From Escherichia phage ESCO13: DNA of 64,000 nucleotides. The stretch is from sequence record NC_047770.1; one strand, written 5' to 3'. Positions within the stretch are counted from its first letter, which is position 1. Every line of letters begins with the position of its first letter. This document shows, piece by piece, positions 26,329 to 26,414 of this stretch. The notes under the pieces were generated by a model that saw nothing but the letters and a program-made list of their open reading frames with translations, did no database searches and had not been told where the DNA came from. Made by a program: the position numbers and the translations under genes.

Positions 26329-26414
26329 GATGAGTTGGCTGAATGGTTTAAGCGGCGGACTGTTAATCCGTGTTCGAAAGAACAATATAGGTTCGAATCC
26401 TATACTCATCGCCA
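26329..26414 (+). tRNA. Atypical tRNA: Asn-type anticodon arm (GTT) with a long type-II-like variable arm
   Basis: Anticodon arm GCGGA-CTGTTAA-TCCGT matches E. coli tRNA-Asn, but a 15-nt variable arm with GTTC-GAAA-GAAC hairpin replaces the usual 5 nt; 83 nt plus CCA. Confidence 0.6.

Follow-up and report, generated by a model that had tools for sequence, protein, structure and literature searches.

Escherichia phage ESCO13 carries a cluster of tRNA genes, and one of them, a gene for tRNA-Asn(GUU), has the long variable arm of a class II tRNA. The DNA analyzed, hereafter the window, is a 64,000-nt stretch of the phage sequence (NC_047770.1), in which ARAGORN and Rfam place the cluster at positions 25537‒27549 on the plus strand; the same cluster is annotated in phage phAPEC8. 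The tRNA-Asn gene occupies positions 26329‒26414 (plus strand, 86 nt, sequence GATGAGTTGGCTGAATGGTTTAAGCGGCGGACTGTTAATCCGTGTTCGAAAGAACAATATAGGTTCGAATCCTATACTCATCGCCA) and is the only Asn tRNA gene within the window. The gene and its parts, all on the plus strand, are as follows.

26329‒26414, plus: tRNA-Asn(GUU) of class II (long-arm) architecture, 86 nt (ARAGORN, Rfam, minimum-energy fold)
26329‒26335, plus: 5′ strand of the acceptor stem, GAUGAGU, partner of 26404‒26410, with G1-C72, A2-U71, and U3-A70 (Rfam, fold)
26338‒26353, plus: D arm with a GCU/AGC stem, a G13-A22 mismatch, and C11-G24 (comparison with E. coli serU, tyrT, and asnT)
within 26338‒26353: D loop AAUGGUUUA, 9 nt with A22 unpaired, 8 nt between positions 13 and 22
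26355‒26371, plus: anticodon arm GCGGA-CUGUUAA-UCCGU (alignment with E. coli asnT)
26362‒26364, plus: anticodon GUU, reading AAC and AAU (ARAGORN, Rfam)
26372‒26386, plus: variable region, 15 nt (RNAfold; pairs compensatory in 14 homologs)
26372‒26383, plus: variable-arm hairpin GUUC-GAAA-GAAC, followed by the unpaired AAU at 26384‒26386
26387‒26403, plus: T arm AUAGG-UUCGAAU-CCUAU (Rfam, fold)
26404‒26410, plus: 3′ strand of the acceptor stem, ACUCAUC (Rfam, fold)
26411, plus: discriminator G73, an identity element for asparaginyl-tRNA synthetase (AsnRS) (PMC9976931)
26412‒26414, plus: genome-encoded CCA end (sequence)

ARAGORN calls a tRNA-Asn with the anticodon GTT whose boundaries are exactly those of the gene, and the Rfam tRNA model RF00005 gives the same interval 62.1 bits (gathering score 29, E = 4.8e-11), with an insertion of 12‒13 nt in the variable region of the alignment. 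The minimum-energy structure from RNAfold is a cloverleaf with the GUUC-GAAA-GAAC stem-loop as a fifth hairpin. These results bear out a first-pass annotation of the same DNA, which had described from the letters alone an anticodon arm matching that of E. coli tRNA-Asn and a 15-nt variable region with a perfect hairpin, and had proposed tRNA prediction and covariance scoring as checks. The better arm-less fold that it had considered was found neither in the Rfam alignment nor by RNAfold or RNAalifold, and the arm covaries at every pair.

The acceptor and T stems measure 7 and 5 bp, the canonical 7/5 configuration; the T loop is of the form GTTCRANNC, and the D loop has its GG. The anticodon loop is 7 nt long and contains U33 and a purine at position 37. 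The D arm is of the class II type, with a 3-bp stem, the G13-A22 mismatch, and an enlarged D loop; the 4‒5-nt variable loop and the 4-bp D stem of a class I body are both absent. The anticodon arm together with positions 25 and 26 forms a block of 19 nt (positions 25‒43, CGGCGGACTGTTAATCCGT) that is identical to E. coli K-12 asnT. A pattern written for long-armed Asn tRNA matched the window once and matched none of 100 dinucleotide-preserving shuffles.

Over the 2.3-kb tRNA region, the window matches Escherichia phage vB_EcoM-Ro121c4YLVW at 100% identity and phAPEC8 (Stephanstirmvirinae, Phapecoctavirus) at 95%, and the GenBank records of both phages annotate the gene as tRNA-Asn. Across Phapecoctavirus, the Asn gene is conserved at 97.7‒100% identity. 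The phage is a phAPEC8-like coliphage, and its tRNA-Asn gene is real and conserved.

A class of long-armed tRNA-Asn in phages and tRNA arrays

Sensitive BLAST with the 86-nt gene matched 756 phage records, and the closest relatives outside the genus are found in Serratia phage CBH8 (87.8%) and in T5-like phages (83‒85%). Long-armed tRNA-Asn(GUU) genes across phages are 80‒91 nt long, and homologs annotated as tRNA-Asn occur in Straboviridae, Demerecviridae, Vequintavirinae, Stephanstirmvirinae, Alcyoneusvirus, and a Pseudomonas jumbo phage. The following phages have a tRNA-Asn(GTT) of 83‒87 nt by annotation or ARAGORN.

T4-like phages: Serratia phage CBH8, Enterobacter phage CC31
T5-like phages: Salmonella phage SB9, Shigella phage SHSML-45, Proteus phage RP7
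Vequintavirinae (rV5-like): Klebsiella phage KPP-1, Erwinia phage pEp_SNUABM_01
Justusliebigvirus: Escherichia phage SD2
jumbo phages: Muenster, Pseudomonas 2PS

The tRNA-Asn of Kuttervirus is an ordinary one of 75 nt with the same host-like anticodon arm.

We define the class by an arm region of 11‒19 nt, with a hairpin of 2‒5 bp and 3‒4 unpaired nucleotides on its 3′ side, together with GUU, G73, and a location in a phage tRNA cluster, all of which the window tRNA-Asn has. The pattern used to collect members requires UGUUAAUCC and GGUUCRANNCC (loop UGUUAA), which leaves class diversity under-sampled and makes the conservation of the anticodon arm partly a result of the search design. A scan of IMG/VR with this selective pattern returned at least 120 loci, and ARAGORN called at least 99 tRNA-Asn(GTT) genes of 80 nt or more in the loci listed. 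Together with a phage-database set and the window, the IMG/VR matches listed make up at least 86 distinct sequences. Of these 86, 83 have G73, and every one has CUGUUAA or UUGUUAA as its anticodon loop, where UGUUAA was required by the pattern.

A second scan used a pattern independent of arm length, CGGACTGTTAATCCG. Among the IMG/VR matches listed, 13 Asn tRNAs were long-armed and 97 ordinary (about 12% long-armed), a ratio in which proviruses with flanking host tRNAs inflate the ordinary count; among the matches listed from bulk metagenomes, the long-armed form accounted for 4 of 118. Every long-armed Asn gene sits in a tRNA array; the median number of other tRNAs within 3 kb is seven, and none of the genes is solitary, unlike the ordinary Asn tRNAs of metagenomes, which are solitary in 68% of cases. 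In 100 of 109 loci, no Asn tRNA was seen besides the long-armed gene; an ordinary one lies near it in the other nine and is immediately adjacent in seven.

Cellular genomes in GTDB were scanned across 185,579 bacterial and archaeal species. By ARAGORN, 10 of the first 120 matches are real long Asn tRNAs, and the remaining ~110 comprise 31 short tRNA-Asn and otherwise matches to the short pattern; the matches listed yield no frequency for cellular genomes. Several of the bacterial genes lie in arrays of at least 30 genes in Micromonosporaceae or in an array of a Saprospiraceae metagenome-assembled genome. No copy of the phage-form tRNA-Asn was found in 5,426 complete E. coli genomes by a search that is insensitive to short matches. 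The window tRNA-Asn is thus one member of a widespread class found in many unrelated phage families and a few bacterial arrays, rather than the singular chimera for which the first-pass annotation had taken it, and the comparison with related phages that had been proposed there turned up the long arm in many of them. The distribution points to a class carried almost only by phages and mobile tRNA arrays.

The bacterial arrays that contain long-armed tRNA-Asn, in Verrucosispora, Micromonospora, and the Saprospiraceae metagenome-assembled genome, have from 11 to more than 30 tRNA genes and resemble phage tRNA clusters. The long-armed tRNA-Asn of the Micromonosporaceae arrays is 90 nt long, and the Saprospiraceae array also holds an 88-nt tRNA-Lys(UUU).

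Hairpin arms occur in other normally short-armed phage isoacceptors of the IMG/VR loci, which were chosen for Asn tRNAs and are biased in this respect: Ile(UAU) in 15 of 26, Thr(UGU) in 10 of 59, Cys(GCA) in 7 of 45, and Trp(CCA) in 5 of 59. The arm regions of Ile(UAU) measure 21‒27 nt, and their loops share a CAGAUUAG-like motif.

Covariation in the variable arm

The arm was analyzed in a gap-free, hand-checked alignment of 14 diverse class members. All four pairs of the arm have changes on both sides, and pairing is kept in 100% of the cells of the alignment; in the acceptor stem, seven of seven pairs covary. The covariation score of the whole structure is 0.794 vs 0.196 in shuffles, and none of 500 shuffles scored as high. 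When the 3′ partners are slid by 1‒3 columns, the score falls to 0.07‒0.14. RNAalifold predicts the same arm helix independently, and in an alignment of class representatives, the Asn anticodon loop and G73 are invariant while the two strands of the arm change together.

Folding energies agree with this pattern across the 86 sequences. The variable region folds with negative energy in 96.5% of them, its mean folding energy is −3.0 kcal/mol vs −0.44 kcal/mol for shuffles, and in 70% it ranks in the best 5% of its own shuffles. The arm is maintained in the class by compensatory substitutions. A covariance model built from the 14 members gave 273 matches, which were every tRNA in the loci; it was not class-specific and so was left unused.

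Arm geometry compared with other tRNAs

The arm was compared with those of the distinct class II tRNAs of the same phage loci. The rows below give the length of the variable region, the stem, and the unpaired nucleotides on the 5′ and 3′ sides.

tRNA-Ser (n = 62): 15‒23 nt; stem mostly 5‒7 bp; 1 + 1 unpaired; discriminator mixed (G in 37); G2-C71 in 61 of 62
tRNA-Leu (n = 57): mostly 13‒15 nt; stem 2‒4 bp; 1 + 2 unpaired; A73 in 57 of 57
tRNA-Tyr (n = 40): 12‒16 nt; stem 3‒4 bp; 1 + 3 unpaired; A73 in 40 of 40; GNRA loop in 4 of 39
long-armed tRNA-Asn (n = 86): mostly 13‒16 nt; stem 3‒4 bp; 0‒1 + 3‒4 unpaired; G73 in 83 of 86; GNRA loop in 54 of 85 (GAAA in 45)

E. coli tyrT and serU have the same geometries as their phage counterparts. 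The window arm, with 4 bp, no unpaired nucleotide on the 5′ side, and three on the 3′ side, does not have the Ser geometry. In the class, the first acceptor pair is U1-A72 in 52 of 86 sequences and G1-C72 in 30, and the second is C2-G71 in 36 and G2-C71 in 33. The arm of the class therefore has a Tyr-like geometry and a Ser/Leu-like loop, and the acceptor stems are often like those of bacterial tRNA-Asn. D arms vary within the class: that of the window tRNA is class II-like, and those of KPP-1 and pEp_SNUABM_01 are nearly that of asnT.

The window tRNA shares with E. coli tRNA-Asn(GUU) (asnT/U/V/W) the GUU anticodon, G73, positions 25‒43, a canonical T loop, and an encoded CCA. Otherwise, the host tRNA is 76 nt long, with U1-A72/C2-G71, a D stem of 4 bp, and a variable loop of 5 nt, where the 86-nt phage tRNA has G1-C72/A2-U71, a D arm of the class II type, and a hairpin arm of 15 nt. 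Bacterial and phage tRNA-Tyr(GUA) resemble the window tRNA in their class II body, short arm of 3‒4 bp, ~3 unpaired 3′ nucleotides, and G34 and U35, and their anticodon loop differs by one base; in the window, the tRNA-Tyr gene is adjacent and its acceptor stem is near-identical. However, tRNA-Tyr has A73, A36, and rarely a GNRA loop, whereas the window tRNA-Asn has G73, U36, and a GAAA loop. Bacterial and phage tRNA-Ser likewise have a D arm of the class II type, C11-G24, G73, and a long arm capped by a GNRA loop, but their arms are mostly of 5‒7 bp with one unpaired nucleotide on each side, G2-C71 is near-universal, and the anticodons are those of serine.

Allo-tRNAs (Mukai et al. 2017, PMC5389517) also join the body of one class to the anticodon of another amino acid, and they occur in phages and irregular tRNA clusters as well. 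They have 8/4 or 9/3 acceptor/T-stem configurations and Ser or Ala identity, whereas the window tRNA combines the canonical 7/5 configuration with the full Asn set.

Identity elements and decoding

In bacteria, asparagine identity is set by G73 and the anticodon triplet, and grafting these onto the body of tRNA-Lys transfers it (PMC9976931). The window tRNA-Asn has both G34-U35-U36 and G73. The U1-A72 pair, which is typical of bacterial tRNA-Asn and is a determinant for the amidotransferase route, is replaced in the window by G1-C72. E. coli uses AsnRS directly and thus has no need for U1-A72. Most class members do have U1-A72, which is not the usual first pair of Ser, Tyr, or Leu tRNAs. The window tRNA carries the complete known AsnRS identity set and a host-identical anticodon arm on a class II body.

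The elements for other synthetases are incomplete. Serine identity depends, according to a review, on the size and orientation of the arm plus acceptor determinants, and G1-C72 and G2-C71 are conserved in bacterial tRNA-Ser; C2-G71 is listed as an antideterminant for seryl-tRNA synthetase (SerRS) (PMC9976931). The window tRNA has G1-C72 and G73, but A2-U71 stands in place of G2-C71; the two tRNA-Ser genes of the phage itself keep both G1-C72 and G2-C71. Since G73 is common to tRNA-Ser and tRNA-Asn, it does not discriminate between the two. Tyrosine identity requires A73, and U35 is critical (review); the window tRNA has G73 and GUU in place of A73 and GUA. Because of A2-U71 and the non-Ser arm geometry, charging by SerRS is unlikely, and the identity elements make AsnRS by far the most likely enzyme to charge the window tRNA.

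The G+C content of the window is 39%, and Asn codons make up 58 per 1000 codons (5.8%) in its long open reading frames. Asn codon use in E. coli is ~40 per 1000. With Asn at 5.8% of phage codons, systematic misreading would be costly. We consider that the tRNA would be transcribed together with its neighbors and then processed, charged with asparagine by the host AsnRS, and used to read AAC and AAU, and that it would thereby supplement or replace the host tRNA-Asn. The best reading of the gene is that it probably encodes a functional, Asn-decoding phage tRNA whose remodeled body may evade tRNA nucleases.

tRNA nucleases and the remodeled tRNA body

A concrete candidate for such a nuclease is AriB of the PARIS defense system, which cleaves E. 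coli tRNA-Asn(GUU) as a secondary target, between positions 40 and 41 within U36-A-A-U-C|N41 (PMC12409363). At low induction, co-expression of T5 tRNA-Lys, tRNA-Thr, and tRNA-Asn rescues PARIS toxicity, and at high induction, tRNA-Lys and tRNA-Thr are enough (PMC12409363). In an AlphaFold 3 model, one AriB active site is at 40|41 and the other monomer at U16-U17 of the D loop, and experiments with chimeras imply AriB contacts outside the anticodon arm (PMC12409363). The word "variable" is absent from the main text of that paper, and the arm of T5 tRNA-Asn is unmentioned there.

The T5 tRNA-Asn belongs to the long-armed class, and its contribution to the rescue from PARIS in vivo is indirect evidence that such a tRNA may be charged with asparagine. 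In T5_ev212, SP15, and Bas34 (~280 T5-like records in all), it has 83 nt and a GUC-GAAA-GAC arm followed by AAC. It is like the window tRNA in its GAAA-capped arm with three unpaired nucleotides, G73, CUGUUAA, and encoded CCA, and differs in its length of 83 nt, 3-bp arm, G2-C71, and D stem of 4‒5 bp; it has U28-A42 beside the AriB cut site, whereas the window tRNA retains the host C28-G42. The T5 tRNA-Thr(UGU), the counterpart of another AriB target, is long-armed as well (87 nt): its variable region consists of A, GGA-GUAA-UCC, and CGUU, and its anticodon arm keeps UAAUCA, the AriB-cut site. Both T5 tRNA-Leu genes, on the other hand, have a variable loop of only 5 nt. The genes in the segment 26000‒46000 of LR597659.1 (T5_ev212), numbered within the segment, are as follows.

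4134‒4220, minus: tRNA-Thr(UGU), 87 nt, class II, GUAA-capped arm
5881‒5957 and 10050‒10126, minus: tRNA-Leu genes (UAG, UAA), 77 nt each

T5 alone thus shows class switching both ways, with long-armed Asn and Thr tRNAs and arm-less Leu tRNAs. Evasion through the variable arm has a precedent in T5 tRNA-Tyr, which is reported to resist PtuAB of retron-Eco7 because of its distinctive variable loop (PMC13096335).

The window tRNA-Asn is a phage-borne copy of a host tRNA that AriB targets, tRNA-Asn(GUU), and a tRNA-Thr(UGU), the counterpart of another AriB target, lies 3′ of it in the same cluster. It keeps the host UAAUC|C site exactly, so any resistance to AriB must come from the body or the arm. 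The arm begins 3 nt after the cut site, between the two modeled AriB contact points. The arm and the remodeled D region would make the tRNA body unlike that of the host tRNA-Asn, while the anticodon arm would stay untouched for AsnRS and for modification enzymes (queuosine, t6A). Evasion of a tRNA-Asn nuclease by the long-armed tRNA, with AriB of PARIS as the candidate, is plausible. That body-reading nucleases such as AriB would thereby fail to dock is possible, though we hold it with some doubt, and the same applies to a block of AriB docking by the arm itself, which is proposed from geometry. The wider proposal, in which the long arm is an immune-evasion device that sterically excludes body-docking tRNA nucleases in general, is doubtful. 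Less frequently, Thr(UGU), Cys, Trp, and Ile(UAU) tRNAs may have been converted for the same evasion.

Several points weigh against the reading of the gene as an Asn-decoding tRNA with an evasive body. Aminoacylation and expression of the window tRNA, and its resistance to cleavage, are predictions. Class II synthetases approach the tRNA from the variable-loop side, as in complexes of aspartyl-tRNA synthetase, and the long arm could therefore hinder AsnRS. The ordinary 75-nt Asn tRNA of Kuttervirus implies that the arm is dispensable for a phage Asn tRNA in this host range. Since T5 tRNA-Asn also has U28-A42 beside the cut site, its arm is only a candidate determinant of resistance. The T5 rescue may, according to its authors, reflect competition for AriB rather than decoding, and Bas34 is still sensitive to PARIS despite its long-armed Asn tRNA (PMC12409363). 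The tRNA-Asn of SP15 did not rescue phages from PrrC170. Finally, the window cluster is without tRNA-Lys(UUU), so the phage would not be fully PARIS-proof.

Origin of the arm and alternative roles

The alternative that survives best, although rather unlikely, is that the arm has no adaptive role: a class II tRNA would have shifted to Asn identity, or a hairpin would have been inserted into a tRNA-Asn, and the arm would be kept only through co-adaptation with the D arm and core, in a tRNA that still decodes Asn. The most economical route would start from tRNA-Tyr, with GUA changed to GUU (A36U) and A73 to G73. Such a shift is easy to conceive, since AsnRS needs only the anticodon and G73, so that any body serves. 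The arm geometry fits phage and E. coli tRNA-Tyr (1 + 3) and not Ser (1 + 1) or Leu (1 + 2), the Tyr and Asn genes are adjacent in the window and in phage SD2, and their acceptor stems in the window are one pair apart. Phage tRNAs also switch class both ways, as the arm-less T5 tRNA-Leu illustrates, and ~40% of the phage tRNA-Leu in the loci examined are short; from this two-way switching, the presence of an arm seems to drift where the synthetase is indifferent.

However, with the anticodon arm removed, the long-armed Asn tRNAs reach best identities of only 54‒56% to the Tyr, Ser, and Leu tRNAs of their own locus, a background level that is alike for all three, and the closest class is split 8/6/4. 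The arm loops are of the GNRA type, as in Ser and Leu, far more often than in Tyr (54/85 vs 4/39). KPP-1 and pEp_SNUABM_01 combine a class I D arm like that of asnT with the arm, which implies more than one origin or convergence and is hard to explain without selection. Asn tRNAs are also long-armed far more often than other class I isoacceptors, in loci that were chosen for long-armed Asn. The same low identity to Ser, Leu, and Tyr tRNAs of the locus leaves a recent alloacceptor shift unsupported, and the sequences are compatible with an ancient shift or more than one origin, either of which is possible.

A second alternative, which we regard as improbable, is a mainly non-decoding decoy that occupies AriB or PtuAB uncut instead of serving translation. 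PtuAB cuts tRNA-Tyr in its variable arm, and overexpressed phage tRNA-Tyr partially suppresses Septu-mediated degradation (PMC13096335); overexpressed viral tRNAs may likewise inhibit AriB by competition (PMC12409363), and the bait in the window tRNA would be its anticodon arm, identical to the host's, combined with a variable arm of Tyr-like geometry. A decoy would, however, need none of G73, the encoded CCA, the canonical T loop, and the paired acceptor stem, all of which are conserved, and the AT-rich phage uses Asn codons heavily and has no other Asn tRNA in the window. A non-decoding role, one of the uses suggested at first, is thus unlikely given that GUU and G73 are kept in nearly all 86 members, although decoding and decoy roles are not mutually exclusive.

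The last alternative is a missense tRNA that inserts serine or tyrosine, with SerRS reading the long arm and G73 so that Asn codons would be translated partly as Ser. The long arm, G73, G1-C72, C11-G24, and the Ser-like D arm would suit it, as would a SerRS that ignores the anticodon (tRNA-Ser anticodon variants mistranslate, according to a review), the arm of the phage's own tRNA-Ser(GCU), which is also only 4 bp with GAAA, and the T4-like and T5-like class members, which have both G1-C72 and G2-C71. Mis-acylation by SerRS, as first suggested, nevertheless finds no support in the short window arm (0 + 3 unpaired) with A2-U71, at a position where 61 of 62 phage tRNA-Ser have G2-C71, or in the class, where the SerRS antideterminant C2-G71 occurs in 36 of 86 members and U1-A72 in 52, and where 3‒4 unpaired 3′ nucleotides replace the single one of tRNA-Ser although SerRS reads the orientation of the arm. 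Systematic substitution at 5.8% of codons would harm the proteins of the phage itself, yet hundreds of phages conserve the gene with an intact Asn identity set, and, for tyrosine, A73 in 40 of 40 phage tRNA-Tyr contrasts with G73 in 83 of 86 here; we consider this alternative very improbable and the least likely of the three.

Organization of the tRNA cluster

The first half of the cluster consists of Met, Arg(UCU), Ser(UGA)-like, Ser(GCU), Tyr(GUA), Asn(GUU), and a tRNA-like remnant, and the second half of Thr(UGU), Gly(UCC), Gln(UUG), Pro(UGG), Ile(GAU), and a Met-like CAU tRNA. Three groups of tRNA genes are preceded by promoter-like sites and the last is followed by a terminator-like hairpin, all as consensus matches only. 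One of the sites lies upstream of the Ser-Ser-Tyr-Asn-Thr group and is a candidate promoter for the transcript that would contain the Asn tRNA. Elements around the Asn gene are as follows.

25885‒25914, plus: promoter-like site TTGACA-18-TAGATT (with TG), a consensus match of a kind whose count is not above that in shuffles; just upstream of the Ser(UGA)-like gene
25923‒26012, plus: tRNA-Ser(UGA)-like gene
26235‒26322, plus: tRNA-Tyr(GUA), 88 nt, upstream of the Asn gene with a 6-nt spacer
26421‒26503, plus: tRNA-like element between the Asn and Thr genes
27471‒27549, plus: CAU tRNA, 79 nt, closing the cluster

Some of these elements are atypical. The tRNA-Tyr was missed by ARAGORN, scores only 39 bits with Rfam, and has two extra nucleotides in its D arm; its acceptor, GGUGAGU, differs from that of the tRNA-Asn by one pair. 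The Ser(UGA)-like gene has the acceptor GGAAGGG, G73, CCA, a 4-bp GAAA arm, and an aberrant D arm, and it was missed by ARAGORN and at the Rfam gathering threshold; only the tRNA-Sec model matches it, at 35.7 bits (gathering 47). The element at 26421‒26503 has a 7-bp acceptor stem, a folding z-score of −2.8, and a T arm with the 8-nt loop UAUCGAAU, along with a non-canonical anticodon arm and no CCA, and may be a decayed tRNA or a processing element. The CAU tRNA scores 50 bits with Rfam and is labeled "tRNA-Pseudo-CAT" in phAPEC8; ARAGORN places its anticodon unusually late, at position 37, and the gene may be Met, Ile2, or a pseudogene.

Two related records deserve mention. GenBank MG065650.1, named "Campylobacter phage B15" with Campylobacter jejuni as its host, is 99.9% identical to E. 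coli Phapecoctavirus across the whole tRNA cluster, and the host label looks doubtful. In Klebsiella phage ZCKP1 (MH252123.1), the tRNA region is in two pieces around ~700 bp of extra DNA, annotated as an XRE-family antitoxin with a helix-turn-helix domain.

Significance of long-armed tRNA-Asn

According to textbooks and current reviews, only Leu, Ser, Tyr, and Sec tRNAs of bacteria have long variable arms. The gene itself is already known, being annotated in GenBank, and its T5 homolog has been used in experiments. The class II architecture of tRNA-Asn and the existence of the class are apparently undescribed: we found no description of a long-armed tRNA-Asn in open-access and bioRxiv full text, a scope outside which the older papers on T5 tRNA sequencing lie.

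AsnRS-type identity, made up of the anticodon and G73, apparently rides on a class II body in nature, which is useful for tRNA engineering. The class includes that of the model phage T5, explains why isotype-specific classifiers call phage tRNAs inconsistently, and offers a simple structural explanation for escape from body-recognizing tRNA nucleases with the anticodon arm unaltered. If the long arm is indeed an immune-evasion device, Asn would join the natural class II tRNAs of bacterial systems as a fourth amino-acid family, and the gain and loss of arms in phage tRNAs would be a general, previously unrecognized axis of the arms race between phages and their hosts, exemplified by T5, in which Asn and Thr tRNAs would have gained an arm and Leu tRNAs lost it.

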